DNA of 64,000 nt from an uncultured Planctomycetia bacterium (GTDB lineage Bacteria; Omnitrophota; Gorgyraeia; Duberdicusellales; 4484-171), in the NCBI GenBank assembly GCA_964489445.1, contig CAZAYU010000001.1:442480-506479 (forward strand), in the 5' to 3' direction. The notes below the pieces were generated by a model. The model saw only the letters and a program-made list of their open reading frames with translations. It did not search any database and was not told where the DNA came from. A program made the translations under genes and the position numbers. This document shows positions 5,204-64,000 of this stretch, in pieces (position 1 is the stretch's first letter; each line of letters begins with the position of its first letter).

Positions 5204-6388
5204 TTAATAAAGCCCGCTTTTAAAAACTTTTTGCAATATTTTTTTATCTACGGTCAAAGCAAATCTTATAAACCCCTCACCATATTTTCCAAAACCTACA
5301 CCCGGAGTAGCCACAATATTTTTTTTAGTAAGCAAATGCTCTGTAAGTTTTAAAGAAGACCCAAAGCAAGAAGGAATTCTAGCCCAAACATAAAATGTAG
5401 AGCTGGCATAGATATCTTTAAAACCATTTTCTTTCAAATTTCTCACAAAGAAATCTCTTCTTTCCTTAAATATTTTTCTTAACTCGCAAACATACTGCTG
5501 TTCGTTCTCTAAAGCAGCCACCCCTGCTTCTTGCACTGCTTGGAAAACACCTGAATCAATATTTCCTTTTACTTTTAAAAGTGTTTTTATTAAGTTCTTG
5601 TTTCCTGCTGCCCAACCAACCCTAAAACCAGTCATGCAAAATGTTTTAGAAAGTGAATGAAACTCAATTGCCACTTCTTTAGCTCCATTTACTTCAAGTA
5701 TGCTATGAGGCTTATCTTTAAAGTATATTTCTGAATAAGCATTATCATAGGCAATAATGATACCGTATTTTACACAAAATTTAACTACATCTTCCATAAA
5801 CCGCAAGGAAGCTAGTGAGGTGGTCGGATTGTTAGGGTAATTTAAATAAATTATTTTTGCTTTGTTGCGCACTGAAACAGGAATTTTGTTTAATTCCGGT
5901 AAAAACAAATTCGTTTCTAAAAGAGGCATCTCATAAATTTTTGCTCCGGAAAAAATAGCCGCACCGCGATACCCTGGATATCCAGGAGAAGGAATAATGA
6001 CATAATCACCGGGGTTAACAAATCCTAAAGGAAAGTGCACTAGCCCCTCTTTCGAGCCGATCAACGGCAAAATTTCTTCGTTCTCATTTAAAATGACCTT
6101 AAATCTCTTTTGGGACCATTTTTTTATTGATTTTCGAAATCCTAAGTGTCCTTGGTCTAAAGCATACTTCTGATTTTCTTTCTTTTTCGCTGCAGAAAAT
6201 AAAACTTTGCATACATTTGAAGGAGTAAGAATATCCGGATCCCCAATACTTAAATCAATGAATTTAACACCTTTGCTTTTAAGCTTTGACTTTGTTTTAT
6301 CAATTTCTGCAAATAAATAAGGTGGCAATTTTTTTAAACGCTCTGATATTTCAAAATTACTCATGTTTATCCTTTTTTTTATTTTCAA
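5204..6388 (-). CDS. dapL: LL-diaminopimelate aminotransferase (class I aminotransferase)
   Basis: The N-terminus LKKLPPYLFAEIDKTKSKL is typical of DapL. It has a PLP-aminotransferase fold and sits inside the dapB/dapA/dapF/lysA cluster. Confidence 0.65.
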   Translation of the reverse strand: MKIKKRINMSNFEISERLKKLPPYLFAEIDKTKSKLKSKGVKFIDLSIGDPDILTPSNVCKVLFSAAKKKENQKYALDQGHLGFRKSIKKWSQKRFKVILNENEEILPLIGSKEGLVHFPLGFVNPGDYVIIPSPGYPGYRGAAIFSGAKIYEMPLLETNLFLPELNKIPVSVRNKAKIIYLNYPNNPTTSLASLRFMEDVVKFCVKYGIIIAYDNAYSEIYFKDKPHSILEVNGAKEVAIEFHSLSKTFCMTGFRVGWAAGNKNLIKTLLKVKGNIDSGVFQAVQEAGVAALENEQQYVCELRKIFKERRDFFVRNLKENGFKDIYASSTFYVWARIPSCFGSSLKLTEHLLTKKNIVATPGVGFGKYGEGFIRFALTVDKKILQKVFKSGLY

Positions 6389-22061: not shown

Positions 22062-22125
22062 TTCTTTCTAAACCTCACCCTTAACCTTTCTTCTTCTCTT
22101 CTACTTTTTCCTTTAACCTTTAACC
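22062..22125 (-). repeat. Pyrimidine-rich (plus-strand) tract upstream of the patatin gene
   Basis: The region is CT-rich with repeated aacctt motifs. It shows weaker similarity to the leader repeat family. Confidence 0.25.
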
Positions 22126-29589: not shown

Positions 29590-29730
29590 TACCCCTCGTT
29601 ATTGGTTAAATAATTAGTAGTTTTTATGATTAAAGATTACAAGATAAGAAATAATCATATCGTCTATCTTCCATCATCTATCGTCCATCGTTTTTTCACT
29701 TACCCCTTAATCCTTATCTCTTAATCCTAC
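29590..29730 (-). repeat. Purine-rich leader repeat carrying GATGGACGA / GATGATGGAAGATAG motifs, upstream of pgpA
   Basis: Minus-sense strand reads CGATGGACGATAGATGATGGAAGATAGACGATATG. It belongs to the same family as the 45.2, 59.9 and 62.5 kb leaders. Confidence 0.4.
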
Positions 29731-29770
29731 ATTATCCATCTTCCACCTTGAAGGTGGCAATTGGTTTTTC
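29731..29770 (-). repeat. 40-nt palindromic-core repeat, copy A, between pgsA and pgpA
   Basis: Sequence ATTATCCATCTTCCACCTTGAAGGTGGCAATTGGTTTTTC. It differs from copies B and C only by two single-T indels and contains the palindrome CCACCTTGAAGGTGG. Confidence 0.6.
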
Positions 29771-37377: not shown

Positions 37378-38685
37378 TTATAAAAGATACATATCCTCTG
37401 CCTCTTTTAGCAAGTGCTCCCGAAATTTAGGATGAGCAATGCTAATAATTGCCAACGCCCTTTCTTTGGTTGATTTTCCTTTTAAATTAACTACGCCATA
37501 TTCAGTAACCAAATAATGAGTGTCAGCCCGAGGAGTAGTTATCACCGCACCCTCTTTAAAGCGCGGAACTATCCGAGATATTTCTCCTCCCTTAGCTGTA
37601 GAATAAAAAGCTAATATAGACTTTCCACCTGGAGAATCAAATGCCCCACGGACAAAATCAAGCTGACCACCGGTACCGCTAAACGTACTTCCGTCTAAAG
37701 ATTCTGCATTAGCCTGCCCCAATAAATCAATCTCTAGAACTGAATTAATTGAAACCATATTATTATTCTTAGCAATTACTGCCGGCAAACAAACATAAGA
37801 AGCAGAATAACTTTCCATGCTTGGATTGTTATTCATAAAATCATACATCTTTTTAGTTCCTCCGGCTGTTGTATACACATGCTTCATAGGATGTAACTTT
37901 TTCTTACGTCCGGTAATTACTCCTTTTTTTATTAAATCAATCATCCCATCTGTTAGCAGCTCAGTATGAATTCCTAAATCCTTATGCTTTGTAAGATAAC
38001 GTGTAACCGCATTAGGTAGTCCTCCTATTCCCAGCTGAATGGTTGCACCATTGGGAATCATCTCTGCCAAACAAGGGCCGATAATTTCATCTTCCGGTTT
38101 AGGTTGAGGTGGTTTTAATTCTAAAAGCGGAACATGATTTTCAACTACCGCATCTACTTCAGAAATATGCAAAAGAGATTCGCCGAAAACGCGCGGCATA
38201 TTTTCATTTACTTCTACAATGAGCCTTCGGCAATGTCTAGCTGCAGTAGAAGTGGCATCGTTAGCCGTACCAAAGGTAAAATAACCATAATCATCCATTG
38301 GAGATACAGTAGTAACTGCTGTATCTATTTCCATAAAATCCTTGCACATCCTCGGAACCTGATGAAGATAAGACGGTACATAGTAATTAAGCCCTGTCCT
38401 AACTAACCCTCTCTCCGCACTTCCAACAAACCAAGAATAGCCTTCAATACAATCACATAGTCCTGGATCAAACACTGTTTTCATGGCGTGTTCTAAAGGA
38501 AGAAATGCATAAATTTTAATCTTCTTCAAATTACCTTCCCTGGCTCGGTTAGCAATAGCTTCTAATAAAGCCGGAGGCTGAGCAACACTCATTCCACAAA
38601 CAACAGTTTCTCCATTATTAATTCCAGATACAGCTTTTGAGGGAGAAGTTAATTTTTTCTGATATTCAGAAACAAAAAAGCTCAT
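37378..38685 (-). CDS. Acetyl-CoA hydrolase/transferase family protein (4-hydroxybutyrate / short-chain acyl-CoA:acetate CoA-transferase-like)
   Basis: A 435-aa AcetylCoA_hydro/transferase fold is present on the basis of overall similarity. Confidence 0.75.
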   Translation of the reverse strand: MSFFVSEYQKKLTSPSKAVSGINNGETVVCGMSVAQPPALLEAIANRAREGNLKKIKIYAFLPLEHAMKTVFDPGLCDCIEGYSWFVGSAERGLVRTGLNYYVPSYLHQVPRMCKDFMEIDTAVTTVSPMDDYGYFTFGTANDATSTAARHCRRLIVEVNENMPRVFGESLLHISEVDAVVENHVPLLELKPPQPKPEDEIIGPCLAEMIPNGATIQLGIGGLPNAVTRYLTKHKDLGIHTELLTDGMIDLIKKGVITGRKKKLHPMKHVYTTAGGTKKMYDFMNNNPSMESYSASYVCLPAVIAKNNNMVSINSVLEIDLLGQANAESLDGSTFSGTGGQLDFVRGAFDSPGGKSILAFYSTAKGGEISRIVPRFKEGAVITTPRADTHYLVTEYGVVNLKGKSTKERALAIISIAHPKFREHLLKEAEDMYLL

Positions 38686-38722: not shown

Positions 38723-38941
38723 TTACTCTTTTTTTTCAGAAATATTTTCAAATTCTTTAACGATCTTTTTAACTTCTAGCTCTGTTGACTCAATCTTCTC
38801 CCGGCAAATCCTTATTAGCTCTACTGCCCGTTTTGTTTTTACCGACACCTCATCAACTCCGGTTTTTTCTGATTCTAAGCCCTCTAATATTTCGTTCAAC
38901 TCTTCAATTGCTTCAGTATATTTTACCTCTTTTTTTGCCAT
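38723..38941 (-). CDS. xseB: Exodeoxyribonuclease VII small subunit
   Basis: MAKKEVKYTEAIEELNEILEGLESEKTGVDE... is a 72-aa protein that starts at the internal ATG with SD AAGGAGG. The upstream 25 codons in the ORF track are a spurious read-through of repeat B. Confidence 0.75.
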   Translation of the reverse strand: MAKKEVKYTEAIEELNEILEGLESEKTGVDEVSVKTKRAVELIRICREKIESTELEVKKIVKEFENISEKKE

Positions 38942-38959
38942 TTTTTCCTCCTTAATGAG

Positions 38960-38999
38960 ATTATTCCATCTTCCACCTTGAAGGTGGCAATTTGGTTTT
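38960..38999 (-). repeat. 40-nt palindromic-core repeat, copy B, 18 nt upstream of the xseB start
   Basis: Sequence ATTATTCCATCTTCCACCTTGAAGGTGGCAATTTGGTTTT, identical over 40 nt to copy C. Confidence 0.65.
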
Positions 39000-39031
39000 C
39001 CCCTTGCGAATAGCATTTTTATTATTAAATT

Positions 39032-40006
39032 CTACCGCAAAAGATTTAGAATAACTTTTATCATCATACTTTTTTCCTTTGGCCGGCTAGAAGCAATCAT
39101 CAGCGTAAGCCCCACCAAAGCATTATCATCGATAATCTTGCGGCCATCTTTTCCATATAGAATACCGCATTTCTCTAGAAAACAAACAAATAAAGCAGCA
39201 GCTATACGTTTATTCCCGTCGACAAAGCTATGATTTTTAACTACAAAATACAATAAATGTGCTGCTTTCTCCTGAATCGTAGAATATACATCGACTCCCC
39301 TAAAAGTCTGATAAATTGCCCCTATCGAACTTTTAAAACTGCTATCTTTTTCTTGGCCTACAAGATCTGAATCATTAAACTTTTCTTTCAATACATTAAT
39401 AATCGCTTTAGCTTTTTCATAAGTAAAATTGTATTTAAAGTGTTTGACTCCCTTGGGAACTTTTAAACGCTCGTGATCATAATCATCAAGGATACCTAAA
39501 GCACGTGTATAATCAGATATCACCCGAATAATGCCCTTCGCTTCGTTAGATAAACCAACAAACGATTCAACATTTTTGATCAGTGCTATGGCTTTTTGTA
39601 ATTCTTCGTATTTATCAGCACTTTTAGCAAGACGTTTCTCATTGATTGTATATCCGTCAACTAAATGCTTGCGTAACATATTAGTCGCCCAAATACGAAA
39701 TTGAGTACCCCTCTTGGAATTAACGCGATAACCAACAGAAATAATCATATCTAGGTTATAAAATTGTATTTTATATGTCTTTCCATCTGAAGCAGTATGT
39801 GCAAATTTTGCACATACTGAATTCTCATGTAATTCCTTTGTTTTAAACACATTATGTATATGTTTCGTTATAACGCTTCGCTCAACATTGAATAAAACAG
39901 CTATATGTTTTTGACTAAGCCAGACAGTTTCAGCCTTTAATCGGACTTCGACATTATGCTTGTATAGAATTACTTGCCCTCTGGAACTTTCTTTTTCTTT
40001 CACCAT
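39032..40006 (-). CDS. RhuM-family N-terminal domain fused to a Fic/Doc-fold domain (Doc-type motif HxFxDGNKR)
   Basis: The N-terminus matches the RhuM family (ILYKHNVEVRL...NSVCAKFAHTASDGKTYKIQFYNLDMIISVGYRVNSKRGTQFRIWAT). The C-terminal part carries HSFVDGNKRIAAALF. Confidence 0.7.
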   Translation of the reverse strand: MVKEKESSRGQVILYKHNVEVRLKAETVWLSQKHIAVLFNVERSVITKHIHNVFKTKELHENSVCAKFAHTASDGKTYKIQFYNLDMIISVGYRVNSKRGTQFRIWATNMLRKHLVDGYTINEKRLAKSADKYEELQKAIALIKNVESFVGLSNEAKGIIRVISDYTRALGILDDYDHERLKVPKGVKHFKYNFTYEKAKAIINVLKEKFNDSDLVGQEKDSSFKSSIGAIYQTFRGVDVYSTIQEKAAHLLYFVVKNHSFVDGNKRIAAALFVCFLEKCGILYGKDGRKIIDDNALVGLTLMIASSRPKEKSMMIKVILNLLR

Positions 40007-40067
40007 AATACTTTTTTACTCACCCACGCTAAATTTTATGTTTTTCGTCAGAAAAACATCTAGTCGA

Positions 40068-40107
40068 ATTATTCCATCTTCCACCTTGAAGGTGGCAATT
40101 TGGTTTT
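40068..40107 (-). repeat. 40-nt palindromic-core repeat, copy C, 5 nt downstream of the xseA stop
   Basis: Sequence ATTATTCCATCTTCCACCTTGAAGGTGGCAATTTGGTTTT, a direct repeat of copy B lying 1108 bp away. Confidence 0.65.
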
Positions 40108-40112
40108 TCTTC

Positions 40113-41450
40113 TTATGCACTTTGCTTTCTTTCTACTGTCGACTCTACGTTCCCCTTATAAAAAACAGTGGTCAGTCGGTCTCCTTTTTCAATATCCTTG
40201 ATTGAAGCCACTGCTTTTTTCCCTTTAAGGGTAATCGAGTAGCCTCTTTTCAACACATTAACCGGATCTAATATTTTTATTTTCCCCTCTAAATATTCAA
40301 GGTGCTCTCGACAATGTTGGGGCAATTTAGTTACTGTCGAGGTTAACTTTTCCCAGCTTCTTTTGAGGAAATCTTTTTCATCTTTTAGAATGATATTTAC
40401 ACAAGCAACGATCTTATGCTTTTTTTCTAAAATTTCTTCGCGATGAATCCGAAAAAAACGAAAAGAAGCCGATTCAATCTTTACTGTTAAATTTTCTAAA
40501 TGTTTCTTTTTATTCATCAGTAACCCCTGAGCGTTACTTACTATTTTTTCTTCCAGATAGTTTAAATTTTCCGACACCTCTCTGATTATCTCTACTAAAA
40601 ACTGCCCAGCTTTTGTGGGAGTCTTGCAAACGGTGTGCGCAACTAAATCAGTAATTGTTGTATTAATCTCATGGCCTAAAGCAGAAATAACCGGTAACTT
40701 AGATGCAGCTATGCTTTCTGCTATTTTTTGACTATCAAAATAGCTTAAATCAGCAGTTGATCCGCCTCCGCGAGTTATAACAATAACATCTATCTTTTCC
40801 TTTGCTTCATCATTAAAATACCCCAAAGCCCCCATAACATCTTTCTCCACAAGATTACCCTGCATATGGCAATTACAAGCTAACACCTTAAAACTAAATC
40901 CACTTATCTTAAGTTCATTAGTAAAATCATGATACGCTGCCGATGAAGAGGAAGTTATCAATCCCACTCTCAACGGTAATTGTGGAATCACCAACTGCTT
41001 ATTTTTTTCTAAAAGGCCTTTTCTTTTAAGCTCCTCAATTATTTTTTGCCGGCTTTGGGCCATTTTCCCTAGAGTGTATACCGGATCAATATCTGAGACA
41101 ATCAAGCTAAAATTACCATTCTTAGGATATAAATCCACATCACACAATAATTTAACTTCAATATCATTACGTAGTTCTAATCCGGACGCGGATTCTTTAA
41201 GCCGCTTTAAAATCTGAAATTTTCGGCCTTGAAAAATTGCGGCACTTACTTTAGCTAAAACTTGATCAGCATCTGGATCTTTCTGAACGAAATTAAAATA
41301 AATGTGTTTGCGATCTCTGCTCATCCGCAAATCCTGAATCTCCCCGCACACCCAGACACTGCTAGAAAACTTATCTTTTATCAGTTTTCTGACTGTTGTG
41401 TTTAGCTCTAATACCGTATAAACTTTATTAATTTCAAAAAGACTATCCAC
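40113..41450 (-). CDS. xseA: Exodeoxyribonuclease VII large subunit
   Basis: An N-terminal OB fold (VWVCGEIQDL) precedes the ExoVII large-subunit catalytic region, over 445 aa. Confidence 0.85.
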   Translation of the reverse strand: MDSLFEINKVYTVLELNTTVRKLIKDKFSSSVWVCGEIQDLRMSRDRKHIYFNFVQKDPDADQVLAKVSAAIFQGRKFQILKRLKESASGLELRNDIEVKLLCDVDLYPKNGNFSLIVSDIDPVYTLGKMAQSRQKIIEELKRKGLLEKNKQLVIPQLPLRVGLITSSSSAAYHDFTNELKISGFSFKVLACNCHMQGNLVEKDVMGALGYFNDEAKEKIDVIVITRGGGSTADLSYFDSQKIAESIAASKLPVISALGHEINTTITDLVAHTVCKTPTKAGQFLVEIIREVSENLNYLEEKIVSNAQGLLMNKKKHLENLTVKIESASFRFFRIHREEILEKKHKIVACVNIILKDEKDFLKRSWEKLTSTVTKLPQHCREHLEYLEGKIKILDPVNVLKRGYSITLKGKKAVASIKDIEKGDRLTTVFYKGNVESTVERKQSA

Positions 41451-45198: not shown

Positions 45199-45240
45199 TT
45201 GATTATTATTTGATAACAGAATCGTTTCACCATTTTGATT

Positions 45241-45362
45241 CTCTTTTTATTTTTTCCTCTTCATCCTTCTCCCATCCTCTATCCTCCATCTCATTCTCCA
45301 TCTTCCTTCTTCCTTCTTCCATTCTCCATCATCCCTCGTCCATCTTCCGTCGTCCATCTTTC
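45241..45362 (-). repeat. Purine-rich leader repeat with the GATGGACGAGGGATGATGGAGAATGGAAGAAGG core
   Basis: The minus-sense strand contains two GATGGACGA(C/G)GG units. It spans the intergenic region upstream of the GT2 gene and the 3' tail of the GT4-GT26 ORF. Confidence 0.45.
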
Positions 45363-47598: not shown

Positions 47599-49299
47599 TT
47601 AAAAATTCCTGTTTAAATAATCACTATCCTTACTATTTAAAACCCAATTAGAAAATTCCTTAAGATCATCAGCTTTTTTTAACTCATTAAGATTACTTAC
47701 AACGGGATATAAATTATGATCCAATGGATGCGTCCCTTTATTCTTATAATTAAACTCTGCCCGGAAACTATTCATTATCCAAGGCCGAAGTATAAATGCG
47801 GTATAAGCATGTTTTTTTGCCCACAAAGTTTGCTTCTCTGTCAACAAAGGAAACTCATGAATATGAGAAAGATTTTTTAGATACTCATCTTTGGAGACAG
47901 AATCTACAGTAAATCCCAATCCAGAATATCTACCAGTTCCTGCAGTAAATACCGGCTTTCCAAAGCAAGGCAACTCCATCCCGGTTGTTCCTCTTACTGT
48001 AATTCCATAATCAACAAAGTTGAATAAAGATAAAGTGCTGATATCGGTATCCGGCAACAATATTTTAACGTGCGAAGATAACTTGCCTATTTTTTCCCGA
48101 ATAACCATAATTTCCCGCAACTCACCAGTTAAATTGTCCCGATTTCGTTTCCAGATATTCGCAGGATGAAGTTTAATAATCCAATTTAAATTTTTATTGC
48201 TGCAAGCTGCCTTCAGTGTTTCCACAAACCAATCTTCATAATCTTGAAATAAATCATCACCATAAAACAGATTAGCATCCCAAAGCACATGTGAAAAAAT
48301 AATCGCTGTTCTTTTATTGGTGTCTAGCTCTAACTTTCCAATTATCTCGTCCTTGCTTTTGTTAACAGCCTCAAGCTGATTTCTCTTGCTTAAAAACCAC
48401 TTTCCCCCGTAACGATTACCAAATTCTTCCTGAAGAAAATCTTCATGCTTCTTCGTCCATTCAATTTCTTTTATGCGGTCAAAAGTAGACTTAGACAATG
48501 AATTAGGGTGAAGCCCTTTGGATTCAGAATTAAACCGCTTAAATATTAGTGAATCATCACGCAATGGCTGAACAAATTGGACAATATCTTTCCTGTGTAA
48601 AAACGATAAATCAAATATCGCACCATAAGCATGATCATTAGCCTCATTAAACAAAACACAGTCCGGATTTATATTTTTTATCATTTTCTCTGCAGCATAT
48701 ATCGACTTTATTTGATTTTTCAAATAATACTCTAACTGATAAGAATCTTGTTTATTTGAAAAATCCGGAGTTCTGTGCATTCTTCTAGCCATACGACTTA
48801 ATACTTGCTGCCCCAACCGACATTGTTTAAATTGCCACCCTTTAACCTTCTGGAAAGTAAGGTTATTTAAGGGAAAATTTCTTAAATCCTTCTTGCAGTC
48901 AAATTTATCAAATTGTTTCAAATAATCTTCAAAATAGATAAAATTATTAATCCCAAAAAGCTTAAAATATTTTCGGGGCCAGAAAAAATGCTTCCAGGTC
49001 AATACAACTATTTCTGCTCCGGCAAGCTGCAAAGCCTTACCCAGCATTGCTTCAGTTTTAACTTGATATAAAAAATGCGTAAGACTAACAATTAATATCT
49101 TTTTGTTGGAATAATCTTGAGTCTTGTTTTTTAGAAAACAAAGACCTTTTTTTGCCCTTTGATAATCAGAGGCTATTTGGAAAAAATGCGCAAGATTTTG
49201 ATGATTACGCAATAAATAAACAAATGGAAATATAGATGCAATTTTTTCGGCTATTTCTATTTTTTTCATTAAAATAGATCTCCTGTCTTTAGCAAACAC
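47599..49299 (-). CDS. Hypothetical GT-B-like protein with an 'HP' motif, either a KpsS/KpsC/LpsZ-like capsule synthesis protein or a candidate sialyltransferase
   Basis: IIKLHPANIW and a downstream GTTGMELPCFGKPVFTAG resemble HP-motif families (Capsule_synth / GT38-52-80 sialyltransferases / TagF-like). It is next to the neuBCA genes. Confidence 0.3.
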   Translation of the reverse strand: MFAKDRRSILMKKIEIAEKIASIFPFVYLLRNHQNLAHFFQIASDYQRAKKGLCFLKNKTQDYSNKKILIVSLTHFLYQVKTEAMLGKALQLAGAEIVVLTWKHFFWPRKYFKLFGINNFIYFEDYLKQFDKFDCKKDLRNFPLNNLTFQKVKGWQFKQCRLGQQVLSRMARRMHRTPDFSNKQDSYQLEYYLKNQIKSIYAAEKMIKNINPDCVLFNEANDHAYGAIFDLSFLHRKDIVQFVQPLRDDSLIFKRFNSESKGLHPNSLSKSTFDRIKEIEWTKKHEDFLQEEFGNRYGGKWFLSKRNQLEAVNKSKDEIIGKLELDTNKRTAIIFSHVLWDANLFYGDDLFQDYEDWFVETLKAACSNKNLNWIIKLHPANIWKRNRDNLTGELREIMVIREKIGKLSSHVKILLPDTDISTLSLFNFVDYGITVRGTTGMELPCFGKPVFTAGTGRYSGLGFTVDSVSKDEYLKNLSHIHEFPLLTEKQTLWAKKHAYTAFILRPWIMNSFRAEFNYKNKGTHPLDHNLYPVVSNLNELKKADDLKEFSNWVLNSKDSDYLNRNF

Positions 49300-57917: not shown

Positions 57918-58631
57918 TTATTTTACCGCCTCAACATAAAGAGTCTCAATTTCTCGTTCGGCAAGTTCAATCTTATCAATATCAGGAATCTGGCTATCTA
58001 GTCTCTTCTTTTTTTTGACTTGGCTAAAACCGCTGATTTCTAATATATGCTTTAATGACTCAAAATCATAAAACCATTCATGTGTTCTTCCACAATCATA
58101 AGCTTTAGCCATGAATATTTCTCCGGGAGTAGCTGCTTTATCGTAAACACAAAACTTTTTAATCAAAGGATTTTCAAAGAAATTACGATTATTGTTTGCA
58201 TAATTTTCTGCATACAAACGAAGATTTGGACAGCTAATCCAAATTATTCCCCCTTGCTTCATAACCCGAAAAGCTTCTTGAAAAAAAATAATACTTTTAT
58301 TTAAATCTAAATGCTCAATAAAATGGCTCCCGGCAATAGACTGGATAGATTCTGCTGCAAACGGCCATTTTTTAATTAAATTAAAATTCAAAACTAGAAT
58401 ATCATTTATTTTTTTTACCCGGCCATACTCTTCATATTTCTCATTTTTTATATTCAACCAACCGCTTATCAAATTCTTCCCGCAACCTACATGAAGCTTG
58501 TCGACATTTAGATTAAGAATGCTTTTCGCTAAAAAATATTTATTAATACGAGTATACCGAAGCAATAGGTAAGAAAAAATAAGCCTTAGCGCCCCTTTAA
58601 ATTTAAAAAATATTTTTTCGCACTTACTCAA
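57918..58631 (-). CDS. Class I SAM-dependent methyltransferase (Methyltransf_11-like)
   Basis: Motif I is LHVGCGKN and post-motif-I is GGIIWISCPN, in a 237-aa protein. Confidence 0.6.
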   Translation of the reverse strand: MSKCEKIFFKFKGALRLIFSYLLLRYTRINKYFLAKSILNLNVDKLHVGCGKNLISGWLNIKNEKYEEYGRVKKINDILVLNFNLIKKWPFAAESIQSIAGSHFIEHLDLNKSIIFFQEAFRVMKQGGIIWISCPNLRLYAENYANNNRNFFENPLIKKFCVYDKAATPGEIFMAKAYDCGRTHEWFYDFESLKHILEISGFSQVKKKKRLDSQIPDIDKIELAEREIETLYVEAVK

Positions 58632-59879
58632 TTATTCCCCTTCCTTCTGCAAATCTGTACAAGATACAAATATAGCAACAAAAGAAATAAGCAACCAGAA
58701 TAAAATTGATAGCTTAAGCGAATAAAGCTGAGTATCAAAAAACATTTGGACACAAAATGCTGATGAAGCAGAAATTGTCCCTAACAATAAAATATCAAAT
58801 TTTTTAATTATCATTTTTATACTTCTTCCAAATACTAACCCCAGAAACCATAAAAAAGAAACAAACCCTAAAAGACCGGTTTCAGCTAAAATTTGCAGAT
58901 AACAATTGTGTGCATATAGCGGTTGTAATCCATAATCAGTTATATGATTCATAAACAATCCTAAGCCCCGTCCATTCAAAGGATAATCTTTAAACATTAA
59001 AACTGCCCCTTTCCATATCCCAAATCTTCCTCCGTCGGCTCTTTCAATCAGCTCCAATATATTTTCTCTCAAGAATGGAATACTTATTCCAGCTACTAGA
59101 CAAATTAATAAAAAAAACAAAAATCCAAATTTTATTCTTCTACCTGGAAATAAAAAAGCAAACACTATTAGCCCGATAGATAATGAAAGCAGGCCAGCCC
59201 GAGAATTTACTAAAAAAATATTAATCACCAACAATAAAAATAAAACATACACGCCAAATCTTACCCAAGATTTTTTTATTCTCAGTAGCACCGAGCAGCT
59301 TAACAAAAATATTACTGATAAGTAAGTAGAAAAATTATTGAAGTGGCTGAAACTAGCAGTTACCCCTAAAAAATCATTTGCTCCTTTTAGTTCAAAACCT
59401 CTTAAAAAATCTATTCCTACTATATATTGATAAATACCATCAACAGATACTAAAAAAGCTGAAGCTAAGAAAACATAAATTAAATATTTTACTTTTTGTT
59501 TATTTAAAAATATTTGAGCAAGATAAAAAAGAGCTACTCCCTCTCCCCACTTTGAAACCCAGGCTCTTAAACTTTTCCCTAAAAGATCACCACTGGAAAA
59601 AAAAGAAAATCCAATACATAAATAAAAAATTAATAGCGCCAAATTTACCCTATTGTTAAAAAAGGCTCTTATATCCTTGCCTGATGGTCTTTCAATGGCA
59701 AACCGGATAAGAAAGCAAAGAAGTATAAATCCAAAACAAGTTTCAATCGTTGCGCCGGATATCGGAAGAAAAAAAACCAAAACCCCAAAAAAGAAAACCG
59801 CCGCTTTATTGACTATACTTATAATTTTATCTTTCAATTTATGCACCCTTTTTTTCTCTTCGTCCTTTCCTCTCATCAT
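58632..59879 (-). CDS. O-antigen ligase / polymerase-like membrane protein (Wzy_C family)
   Basis: A 415-aa multi-TM protein with a periplasmic loop between TM segments, typical of the WaaL/Wzy family. Confidence 0.5.
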   Translation of the reverse strand: MMRGKDEEKKRVHKLKDKIISIVNKAAVFFFGVLVFFLPISGATIETCFGFILLCFLIRFAIERPSGKDIRAFFNNRVNLALLIFYLCIGFSFFSSGDLLGKSLRAWVSKWGEGVALFYLAQIFLNKQKVKYLIYVFLASAFLVSVDGIYQYIVGIDFLRGFELKGANDFLGVTASFSHFNNFSTYLSVIFLLSCSVLLRIKKSWVRFGVYVLFLLLVINIFLVNSRAGLLSLSIGLIVFAFLFPGRRIKFGFLFFLLICLVAGISIPFLRENILELIERADGGRFGIWKGAVLMFKDYPLNGRGLGLFMNHITDYGLQPLYAHNCYLQILAETGLLGFVSFLWFLGLVFGRSIKMIIKKFDILLLGTISASSAFCVQMFFDTQLYSLKLSILFWLLISFVAIFVSCTDLQKEGE

Positions 59880-60026
59880 CCTTCCTCCATTCTCCCCCTT
59901 CTAAGCCTCAACCTCATCCTTAACCTTTATTTTTCTCTTCTATTTCCATTTATTTTTCCTTGAACCTTTATCCTTTAACCTTCTTCTCCTATCGTCCTTC
60001 TTCCATTCTCCCTCGTCCATCGTTCT
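59880..60026 (-). repeat. Purine-rich leader repeat (GATGGACGAGGGAGAATGGAAGAAGGACG) upstream of the ligase/polymerase gene
   Basis: Belongs to the same repeat family as the 45.2 and 62.5 kb leaders. Confidence 0.45.
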
Positions 60027-62493: not shown

Positions 62494-62620
62494 TTTATTC
62501 CCTTTAACCTTTATCCCTCATCCTTCTCCCTTCATCTTTCATCTATCATCCCTCGTCCATCATCTTTCTTCCTTCGTCTTTCTCCCGCCTTTTCCCTTTT
62601 TCTACTTCACCCAACCTTAA
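62494..62620 (-). repeat. Purine-rich leader repeat (GATGATGGACGAGGGATGATAGATGAAAGATGAAGGGAGAAGGATGAGGG) upstream of the epimerase gene
   Basis: Belongs to the same repeat family, and the minus-sense strand carries several ARGGATG motifs. Confidence 0.45.
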
Positions 62621-62663: not shown

Positions 62664-63437
62664 TTAAAATTTAGTTTTAACGTAGTCTTCGAAAAGTAAT
62701 ATTTTCTTTGAATCGTTCGGTTTAACAATAAAAGGCAAAAGATCTTTAGATAGCTGTTCAAAATTAAGACCCCTGCACTTATCTAATAATTTTTGTTTAA
62801 GGTCGAAAGAATCATTTATGTTAATTTTCTGTTTCAAATATTCCATATCCGGCAATGTCTTTGCGTGCAAAAAAACTATATCAAAAAAATCTCTTCCCAT
62901 CGGACGCTTCCGAGTAAAAACAGCAAGTATCTTTTGAGAAAGCAACAAATCACCAGGAACACAAAGAATACGAGTAAAAACTTCAAACTTATTTATCAAT
63001 ATTTTCTCCGGATTATATTTATAATCCTGTGGCTCTGCGTCCAATTGAATAACTAATTTAGCATCTTTGTGTCCTGTAATGCCTGCCTGTTTAAGAATAT
63101 CCGAAAATTTAAAATGGCATACATAAGCCCCTTTAAATGTTGTTTTTATTTCAAGCTTATACCCTTCAAGCTCAAGCCTTTTTTTTATTACTCCTGCAAG
63201 TTCAAGAAAATCATCTTTAGACATTGCTAAATTATCAAAATCCAAGTCTTCAGAAAATCTGGTATTACCATGAACGATCTTAATCGCAGTACCGCCCATA
63301 AAAATTAGCTTATCAAGATACTTTGAATCATAAATAATTTCTAATATTTTATACTGTAGGTACTCCCGTAGAATATTTTTTTTGAACGATTTAAGATTAT
63401 CGGGATAAAATTCGCTAAGCTGTTCGATATTAATCAT
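62664..63437 (-). CDS. AbiEii/AbiGii-family nucleotidyltransferase toxin of a type IV TA system
   Basis: LIFMGGTAIKIVHGNTRFSEDLDFD matches the AbiEii/DUF1814 signature (GGTAL...RFSEDLDF). Confidence 0.75.
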   Translation of the reverse strand: MINIEQLSEFYPDNLKSFKKNILREYLQYKILEIIYDSKYLDKLIFMGGTAIKIVHGNTRFSEDLDFDNLAMSKDDFLELAGVIKKRLELEGYKLEIKTTFKGAYVCHFKFSDILKQAGITGHKDAKLVIQLDAEPQDYKYNPEKILINKFEVFTRILCVPGDLLLSQKILAVFTRKRPMGRDFFDIVFLHAKTLPDMEYLKQKININDSFDLKQKLLDKCRGLNFEQLSKDLLPFIVKPNDSKKILLFEDYVKTKF

Positions 63438-64000
63438 TTTTTAAATATTTTATTAGCTTGTCCATTCTGGCTGATAATCTTTTTTGCCCAAACCTTTTAA
63501 GATAACTACTCATCTTTTGTTTATCTATGTTTTCCCAGAATATTTCTCTGTTAAGCCGTAGCTCTAAAAAGTCTTTTTTTGTCTCATAACGAGGATTTAA
63601 ATATAAAAAATCGAGTATCGCTTTTTCAAAATCAGCTATCTTATAGATACCTTTATTATCCTTAACTATCTTATACCCAAAAAATAACTCCGGCTTAACC
63701 GCCTGATAATAAAACCGGCCTATTTTAGTGCTAAACTGATATTTTCGCTTTGTAGAAATAGATGTAACAGCGTAAACACTCTCAGGAATTAGATTATAAT
63801 GGGATAGGGCCATTTCAAGAGATACATATGAAGGTGTATATATGCGATTAGCAATACAATAAAGAATGCTGTCATTAATTTTAGTACCCTTAAAGACATA
63901 GTATCCTTTAACTATTTTTTGAATATATCCATTATCCTGCCATTCATTCAACCTTCTTCGGTAAAAATTAGCATCAAGCTGTTTAATATCCGAAAGAGAA
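63430..64000 (-). CDS. AbiEi-family antitoxin / transcriptional regulator, partial with its N-terminus beyond the window
   Basis: The reading frame stays open to the window edge. RRRLNEWQDNGYIQKIVKGYYVF matches the AbiEi N-terminal wHTH motif (L..L...G.L.R..RG.Y). It overlaps the AbiEii gene by 8 nt. Confidence 0.6.
   Translation of the reverse strand, partial: SLSDIKQLDANFYRRRLNEWQDNGYIQKIVKGYYVFKGTKINDSILYCIANRIYTPSYVSLEMALSHYNLIPESVYAVTSISTKRKYQFSTKIGRFYYQAVKPELFFGYKIVKDNKGIYKIADFEKAILDFLYLNPRYETKKDFLELRLNREIFWENIDKQKMSSYLKRFGQKRLSARMDKLIKYLKND

Follow-up and report, generated by a model that had tools for sequence, protein, structure and literature searches.

How does a single accessory gene come to stand inside an exonuclease VII operon, between two identical copies of a short hairpin-forming repeat? 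The question arises from a 64-kb stretch of contig CAZAYU010000001.1 of an uncultured Omnitrophota bacterium, which we call the window; coordinates are those of its + strand, and the genes at the locus all lie on the minus strand. Here xseA (40113–41450, exonuclease VII large subunit; Pfam PF02601 and PF13742) and xseB (38723–38941, small subunit; PF02609) are parted by a cassette that carries one gene (39032–40006, 324 aa), a candidate toxin or defence gene of the RhuM-Doc type, and that is bracketed by a 40-nt repeat, R. What this natural Omnitrophota population harbours is a cassette without a recombinase, bracketed by a duplicated hairpin element. Reading the available sequences together, we think it probable that the RhuM-Doc cassette integrated at a resident solo R by one exchange, with precise excision as the reverse of that event.

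The repeat pair and the empty site

The 40-mer ATTATTCCATCTTCCACCTTGAAGGTGGCAATTTGGTTTT (R) occurs exactly twice in the window, at 38960–38999 and 40068–40107, both on the + strand, and not once in 100 dinucleotide-preserving shuffles. This substantiates a first-pass annotation of the same DNA, which had described exact direct repeats around one gene between xseA and xseB with all three genes co-oriented. In the sense of the operon the order is xseA (...GCA TAA), GAAGA, R, a 61-nt leader, the cargo open reading frame (ORF), a 32-nt tail, R, CTCATTAAGGAGGAAAAA and the xseB ATG. The left, attL-like R (40068–40107, minus strand; sense AAAACCAAATTGCCACCTTCAAGGTGGAAGATGGAATAAT) begins 5 nt past the xseA stop, and the right, attR-like R (38960–38999, minus strand) lies 32 nt past the cargo stop and 18 nt ahead of the xseB ATG; the cassette body between them (39000–40067) measures 1068 nt. 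Identity ends sharply at 40 nt, the bases beyond differing on both sides, and the two copies are 1108 nt apart from start to start. Inside R lies the 15-nt near-palindrome CCACCTTGAAGGTGG (7-nt arms, one central base), which the annotation had likewise picked out in each copy; it is found three times in the window, where 0.04 would be expected. The cassette ends, TCGACTAGATG... and ...TTCGCAAGGGG, are not inverted repeats of each other.

The Joint Genome Institute (JGI) samples that we searched are metagenomes from the interface and lower zone of Ace Lake (Antarctica), 2013–2014 (PMC7416419), assembled with metaSPAdes. An empty site with a single repeat, as gain of the gene at R would predict, is seen in one contig of the same population, L004 (IMG 3300024048, Ace Lake interface, 21 August 2014; 2258 nt, metaSPAdes). 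It reads xseA...GCATAAGAAGA-[one R]-CTCATTAAGGAGGAAAAAATG-xseB, with xseA-TAA-GAAGA before R and CTCATTAAGGAGGAAAAA-ATG after it. L004 is 100% identical to window positions 40409–40068 (342 nt) and 38999–37044 (1956 nt), skips 39000–40067 plus one R, and its junction is base-perfect for a single R. As sequence, the site is exactly the substrate or product expected of reciprocal recombination within R, and in the occupied allele the right R and the AAGGAGG ribosome-binding site give xseB the same upstream context as in the empty one. The occupied allele is represented by at least nine distinct contigs, plus five similar ones, from independent metaSPAdes and MEGAHIT assemblies. We regard a presence/absence polymorphism of the cassette as plausible.

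The gene order of relatives gives the direction of the change. The XseA relatives carry the annotation Candidatus Omnitrophota; outside this population the nearest is only 62% identical. Two (60–62% XseA identity) have the order xseA-xseB-rpsO-pnp with no cassette and an xseA–xseB spacer of 2 nt in one and 102 nt in the other, which agrees with the earlier assumption that the two genes are normally adjacent. Because xseA and xseB directly follow each other in these relatives, the cargo gene is a derived insertion. The 102-nt spacer (L042 3850–3930, 60% XseA identity) holds two tandem units of a GTAG-plus-hairpin form resembling repetitive extragenic palindromic (REP) sequences, each made of TTGTAGGG, a GC-rich 9-bp hairpin and CTCTAAAAA; the xseA–xseB spacer attracts palindromic elements in another Omnitrophota lineage too. 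An acetyl-CoA hydrolase/transferase gene (37378–38685) stands between xseB and rpsO and is missing there in both relatives (xseB-rpsO-pnp); it is a further insertion, specific to this lineage, in that part of the operon.

We postulate that the 1068-nt RhuM-Doc cassette brought its own R, an imperfect hairpin of ~40 nt, and that its target was a solo R already resident downstream of the xseA stop and ahead of the ribosome-binding site of xseB. A single reciprocal exchange of Campbell type within R, by way of a putative circular intermediate of R plus cassette, would yield xseA-R-cassette-R-xseB with two identical R, both neighbours keeping their original immediate contexts. The cargo would then be transcribed by read-through from the operon, and the reverse exchange between both R copies would remove the cassette precisely, with one R left.

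The cargo matches an N-terminal RhuM domain (PF13310, 2.8e-25) and a Fic/Doc domain (PF02661, 2.8e-11), both above the Pfam cut-off, and has the Doc-type motif HSFVDGNKR. The PADLOC model PDC-S23, of a candidate defence family, gives a full-length match (E=4e-127, residues 17–323 of the 327-position model), and TIGR01550 DOC_P1 scores slightly below its cut-off (36.5 bits). RhuM-DOC fusions are predicted toxins in defence loci (PMC3710099), and we take the cargo to be a candidate single-gene anti-phage or toxin protein of this fusion type; its class is one typical of mobile toxin and defence genes. More than 8000 homologues at 65–84% identity occur in many phyla and contexts. One of them, P0003 (82% identical, in another organism), adjoins a gene with a weak Y1_Tnp match, of IS200 type or like a REP-associated tyrosine transposase (RAYT) (L024 4993–5523), and its region carries GTAGGGGCGGCC... 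inverted repeats. A foreign composition of the cargo was rejected: its GC content is indistinguishable from that of host genes, as are its GC at third codon positions (0.277 against 0.290 +/- 0.027 for the host) and its third-position GC skew (0.22 against 0.32 +/- 0.13). The gene is therefore no recent import from a compositionally different donor.

On its sense strand the cassette leader has no promoter-like site and no consensus sigma-70-like promoter. Since the cargo gene lacks a consensus promoter and points the same way as the operon, it is likely transcribed by operon read-through. The leader contains a palindrome with perfect 9-bp arms, ATGTTTTTC-TGAC-GAAAAACAT (40038–40059, minus strand), 8 nt past the left R, which could serve the cargo gene as an operator or as an RNA hairpin. 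Searched with blastn-short against the other fetched loci, leader and tail gave only chance matches. In the empty allele, the stretch from the xseA stop through the 63-nt R-containing spacer (L004 298–360) into xseB is a single reading frame uninterrupted by a stop. When the site is occupied (window 38942–39016), a 97-aa ORF starts at an ATG in the cassette tail (39016) and runs through R into xseB, and it is this ORF that the JGI gene caller called XseB.

R as an intergenic element

R folds as an imperfect hairpin on either strand, CCA..UU.CCACCU-UCA-AGGUGG.AA..UGG, in which a 6-bp core (CCACCU/AGGUGG) with a 3-nt loop is extended by UU/AA and CCA/UGG pairs. A third copy, at about 29731–29769 on the minus strand, begins 5 nt past the stop of a pgsA-like gene, upstream of pgpA; this copy differs from the 40-mer by two single-T deletions (indels in the first-pass annotation) and, as noted there, has no gene inserted. 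It is unchanged in all ten contigs examined. An exact 22-mer scan of JGI metagenome contigs added one R locus, between an AsnC-like gene and an aminotransferase gene, found in two Ace Lake samples (L022 and L023, which agree with each other); the scan missed contigs overlapping the window, so the number of R copies is a lower bound. Polymorphism at these other R sites was considered and rejected, pgsA/pgpA being identical in the ten contigs and L022 equal to L023. A profile built from the four R copies (nhmmer) detected no further or diverged copies in the window or any fetched locus.

All R copies are co-oriented with the flanking genes, R sits 5 nt past a stop codon at two loci, and the solo copies have the same 5' 'GG' flank as the cassette-borne side of the right R. 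The first-pass annotation had allowed that the repeat might prove an abundant genome-wide element. With three copies in the window, one further metagenome locus and no diverged members in the profile search, R appears to be a low-copy, orientation-specific intergenic element and not a genome-wide REP-like repeat. A scan of GTDB-representative genomes with a 20-mer R core returned only GC-rich coding matches in unrelated bacteria and yielded no genome-wide R copy count.

Several other identities for R were examined. Rfam gave no match at R or in the cassette at gathering or permissive thresholds, and a gathering scan of the window found one tRNA only (2836–2909); the best local alignment of R to this tRNA scores 8, which rules out a tRNA/tmRNA-derived att site. 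R was also rejected as an intrinsic terminator, the sense strand having no U-tract after the stem; a terminator-like call at R was made on the antisense (+) strand only.

Other intergenic repeats lie close to R. A 35-nt box, TTTCACTTACCCCTTAATCCTTATCTCTTAATCCT (+ strand, window 29694–29728), adjoins the solo R at pgsA/pgpA and recurs at ~90% identity on both sides of R in L022 (5966–6000 and ~6093–6127); since the box stands beside R at two loci, R is one module of an intergenic-repeat mosaic. At xseA–xseB no more than a short piece of the box, ATTAAGG, is left after R. The window also has purine-only, GGA-rich tracts whose sense is the minus strand (45233–45341, 59844–59903, 59979–60018, 62556–62612, 22073–22114 and 29655–29696), with a rough 7-nt periodicity (GATGGAA/GACGAGG...) and, in the largest, up to 13 GGA motifs in 109 nt. 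They occur in the 5' leaders of several minus-strand genes, mainly in the envelope/O-antigen cluster, where they may bind proteins or act in translation or as leader elements; their motif is echoed in the 3' half of R (GGTGGAAGATGGAA). Inside the O-antigen cluster, an AbiEii/AbiEi-like toxin-antitoxin or abortive-infection pair (62664–63951) is flanked on both sides by diverged copies of the purine-rich tract (65–89% identity; L058 5159–5270 and 6841–6940). Possibly this pair is another defence module that entered at a repeated intergenic element; none of eight contigs showed an empty allele of it. A 27-nt repeat pair (172–198 and 1173–1199) was tried as a second cassette and rejected, both copies lying inside coding sequences.

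Mobility, fixation and the catalyst

Sequence variation bears on the age of the cassette. A second cassette haplotype (L003/L052) has nine single-nucleotide polymorphisms (SNPs), all transitions, within 39008–39142 (135 nt at the cassette 3' end), with only one SNP in 5.2 kb of flank in L003; L002 has five SNPs in 68 nt of xseA (40697–40764), and background identity is otherwise ~99.95%. The clusters point to brief stretches of DNA recombined in from a divergent lineage which has the cassette as well. The similar xseA cluster in L002 weakens the cassette cluster as a proof of separate insertions, since clusters of this kind are probably traces of ordinary homologous exchange. In a 390-kb contig (L001/L006/L049; ERZ27316330 k141_427330) the palindrome of the right R has its middle base flipped (C>G in sense, window 38980), and a further SNP lies 3 nt downstream of R (window 38957); point mutation could explain the flip, as could inversion of a small hairpin loop. 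Because the cargo has a host-like composition and a second haplotype exists, the data suggest that the cassette is older than the clonal frame and an old member of the lineage gene pool. Since the empty allele equals the dominant haplotype in sequence, a recent and precise loss of the cassette is a likelier origin for it than survival of the ancestral state.

A number of observations weigh against integration and excision at R. First, a single short metaSPAdes contig stands for the empty allele, where at least nine contigs are occupied, and at low coverage the R-cassette-R loop could be traversed zero times, giving a false empty site; the smallest k of JGI metaSPAdes assemblies is presumably 33, under the length of R. 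Contigs that end at R (L053 starts at its base 1, L009 ends at base 40, L012 starts at base 2, and Logan contig ends carry exactly 30 nt of R, that is, k-1) were rejected as proof of heterogeneity; they are ambiguous because repeat nodes at k=31 (Logan) or k=39 (MEGAHIT) fit them. Second, no recombinase, transposase or integrase was found in the cassette or the 64-kb window among ORFs of at least 140 aa that were scanned or had precomputed Pfam annotation. Third, the remaining R sites (pgsA/pgpA in ten contigs; L022/L023) showed no second cassette, and no comparable flanking repeats were found around the closest cargo homologues (79–84% identity). Nor was R found on a phage or plasmid: viral-contig scans with the R core and with cargo relatives turned up nothing and no attP-bearing phage. 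Lastly, the L002 xseA cluster is like the cassette cluster, and the cassette haplotypes may reflect ordinary homologous exchange only.

A rival reading is a fixed old insertion with no ongoing mobility, in which R is a regulatory or mRNA-stabilising REP-like hairpin that happens to follow both xseA and the cargo, or was duplicated once, and the empty contig is an assembly artefact. The imbalance of contig counts speaks for it, as do the use of metaSPAdes with a repeat shorter than typical mid-range k, the fully host-like composition of the cargo, and the REP-like hairpins in the same spacer of a relative. The constant orientation of R to transcription and its position 5 nt past a stop at two loci would fit a role at the RNA level, although the lack of a sense-strand U-tract means that R is no intrinsic terminator for these genes. 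However, independent copies are unlikely to be identical over exactly 40 nt with sharp edges when other members of the family carry indels, and the L004 junction is base-perfect for a single R. Collapse would also usually leave a small contig behind, and among the contigs under 2 kb of sample 3300024048 none has a complete cargo protein, which mildly favours a genuine empty allele. We consider L004 rather likely to be real, and a fixed insertion unlikely.

If the cassette did integrate and excise at R, what catalysed the exchange? The absence of an integrase from the window, stated in the first-pass annotation, was confirmed: no Phage_integrase-family match was obtained among ~50 window ORFs or in the precomputed Pfam of neighbouring genes. 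The window contents are arginine/lysine biosynthesis, envelope, O-antigen, FtsK, PNPase and similar housekeeping genes; two + strand ORFs (LigT, CinA) were annotated by precomputed Pfam only, and the minus-strand ORFs 47599–49299 and 57918–58631 have no Pfam match. We tentatively put forward a trans-acting site-specific recombinase that recognises the palindromic core; RecA-dependent recombination between the identical 40-nt copies is a possibility that we hold only a little more loosely, and an HUH/Y1 single-strand hairpin enzyme seems improbable. The three cannot be separated by sequence alone. Of the site-specific gain at a repeat that had been proposed for this locus, the insertion and, in one contig, the one-R empty site are supported, whereas site-specific as against homologous recombination is no more than a possibility, no recombinase having been found.

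The strand on which R lies has a bearing on single-strand mechanisms. GC skew is about -0.2 on the + strand, unusually strong and uniform over the whole window, and nearly all genes are on the minus strand, which places the window within a single replichore. Judged from this skew, all R copies lie, together with the genes, on the G-rich leading-strand sequence, i.e. the lagging-strand template, a placement that is compatible with a single-strand mechanism without being diagnostic of it. Spelled out, this alternative calls for a trans-acting HUH/Y1 enzyme, like a RAYT or an IS200/IS605 TnpA, that would cut the lagging-strand template at an equivalent place beside every R hairpin and would excise or insert a single-stranded circle of R plus cassette. 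In size R does compare with REPs or IS200 ends; it is an imperfect extragenic palindrome, and its copies share one strand. A relative has GTAG-type units in the same spacer, and the 82%-identical cargo homologue mentioned above adjoins a weak Y1_Tnp gene. Yet neither a Y1 nor a RAYT gene was seen in the window, R is without the GTAG tetranucleotide that canonical REPs have and is low-copy, unlike REP/REPIN populations, and IS200/IS605 insertion leaves no hairpin at the empty site, where here one is kept. We rate such an enzyme-driven circle as quite improbable.

Integration of the cassette at a resident R could be one instance of something wider, although we are doubtful of this: R would be the attachment site of an undescribed, integron-independent Omnitrophota cassette system that moves promoterless defence or toxin genes in trans. 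Each cassette would carry one hairpin of ~40 nt, an enzyme of tyrosine, serine or HUH type would be encoded elsewhere, solo R copies just past stop codons in core operons would serve as landing pads, and the pads at pgsA/pgpA and L022 would stand empty or have been vacated. The stakes differ with the standing of the empty allele. If it is real, the locus offers, in a candidate phylum without genetics, a clear case from nature of a single-gene cassette for defence or toxicity that has no recombinase. Such a cassette would then move into a core DNA-repair operon, and out of it again, by means of a 40-nt hairpin element, the integron logic of a cassette plus a folded recombination site would extend to a different type of site and lineage, and R would provide a concrete sequence with which to seek the responsible enzyme. 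If it is false, what is left is a fixed accessory-gene insertion with a duplicated intergenic hairpin, of local interest only.

Comparison with known systems

One functional parallel is with integron cassettes and clusters of attC sites lacking integron-integrases (CALINs), which likewise have a single ORF of ~1 kb, no recombinase of their own, a hairpin recombination element at the end, toxin or defence cargo, and co-orientation with an upstream promoter from which they are probably transcribed. The differences lie in the element itself. R is 40 nt long, against 57–141 nt for attC; it has no R''/L''/L'/R' architecture and no GTTRRRY/RYYYAAC cores on either strand with its flanks (nearest, GGTTTTC), and its fold is a 6-bp stem with 2-bp and 3-bp outer pairs. 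The flanking elements are identical in full, where attC sites share a 7-bp core; no intI or attI is present in the window, and the cassette stands alone in a housekeeping operon with no array. On length and core motifs, the attC-like label first given to R does not apply, and a CALIN-like mini-array in which R is an attC served by an integrase encoded elsewhere is very improbable indeed, even though the gene is apparently promoterless and the cassettes of chromosomal integrons often carry genes for toxins and defence.

The REP-like label given with it is not borne out by canonical REP features. REP sequences and bacterial interspersed mosaic elements with their RAYTs, like the IS200/IS605 palindrome elements, are short imperfect palindromes between co-directional genes on a consistent strand, as R is; R differs in its very low copy number (three in 64 kb and one metagenome locus), in having no GTAG, and in having no RAYT nearby and no Y1_Tnp in the window. 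REPs are not known to flank, and to carry, a protein-coding cassette whose empty site is precise. The minimal mobile elements of Neisseria, with their mosaics of dRS3 and neisserial intergenic mosaic elements, resemble the locus in an accessory gene between housekeeping genes, presence or absence in one population, short intergenic repeats, and spread probably by homologous recombination in the flanks. Unlike R and its cassette, they are defined by flanking-gene homology and involve no duplicated 40-nt element, and there is no evidence for alternative cargos at xseA–xseB. Two further classes were rejected. A dif site is 28 bp long, with two 11-bp Xer arms around a 6-bp spacer (...ATAA-N6-TTATG...); R and its flanks show no dif pattern by this consensus, and R occurs at three or more loci, where an Xer-exploiting integrative mobile element would use a single terminus site. 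For a miniature inverted-repeat element or DDE transposon, the ends lack inverted repeats and the duplication is 40 nt, against 2–15 bp.

Integrase-mobilised, att-flanked islets and satellites, such as tRNA islands and integrase-less cargo units of the degenerate tycheposon kind, share formal properties with the locus. Their direct repeats are duplicates of the target core, of which a single one is left at the empty site, and the context of the target gene is restored after insertion; the same direct repeats and one-copy empty site are found here, the latter in the single contig L004. They differ in target, which at this locus is an intergenic hairpin and no tRNA or tmRNA 3' end, in size (here 1.1 kb with one gene), and in the integrase, which is absent here from the element and from the surrounding 64 kb. 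The cassette thus works like an integron cassette or an att-flanked islet, yet by the features that define those classes it belongs to neither.

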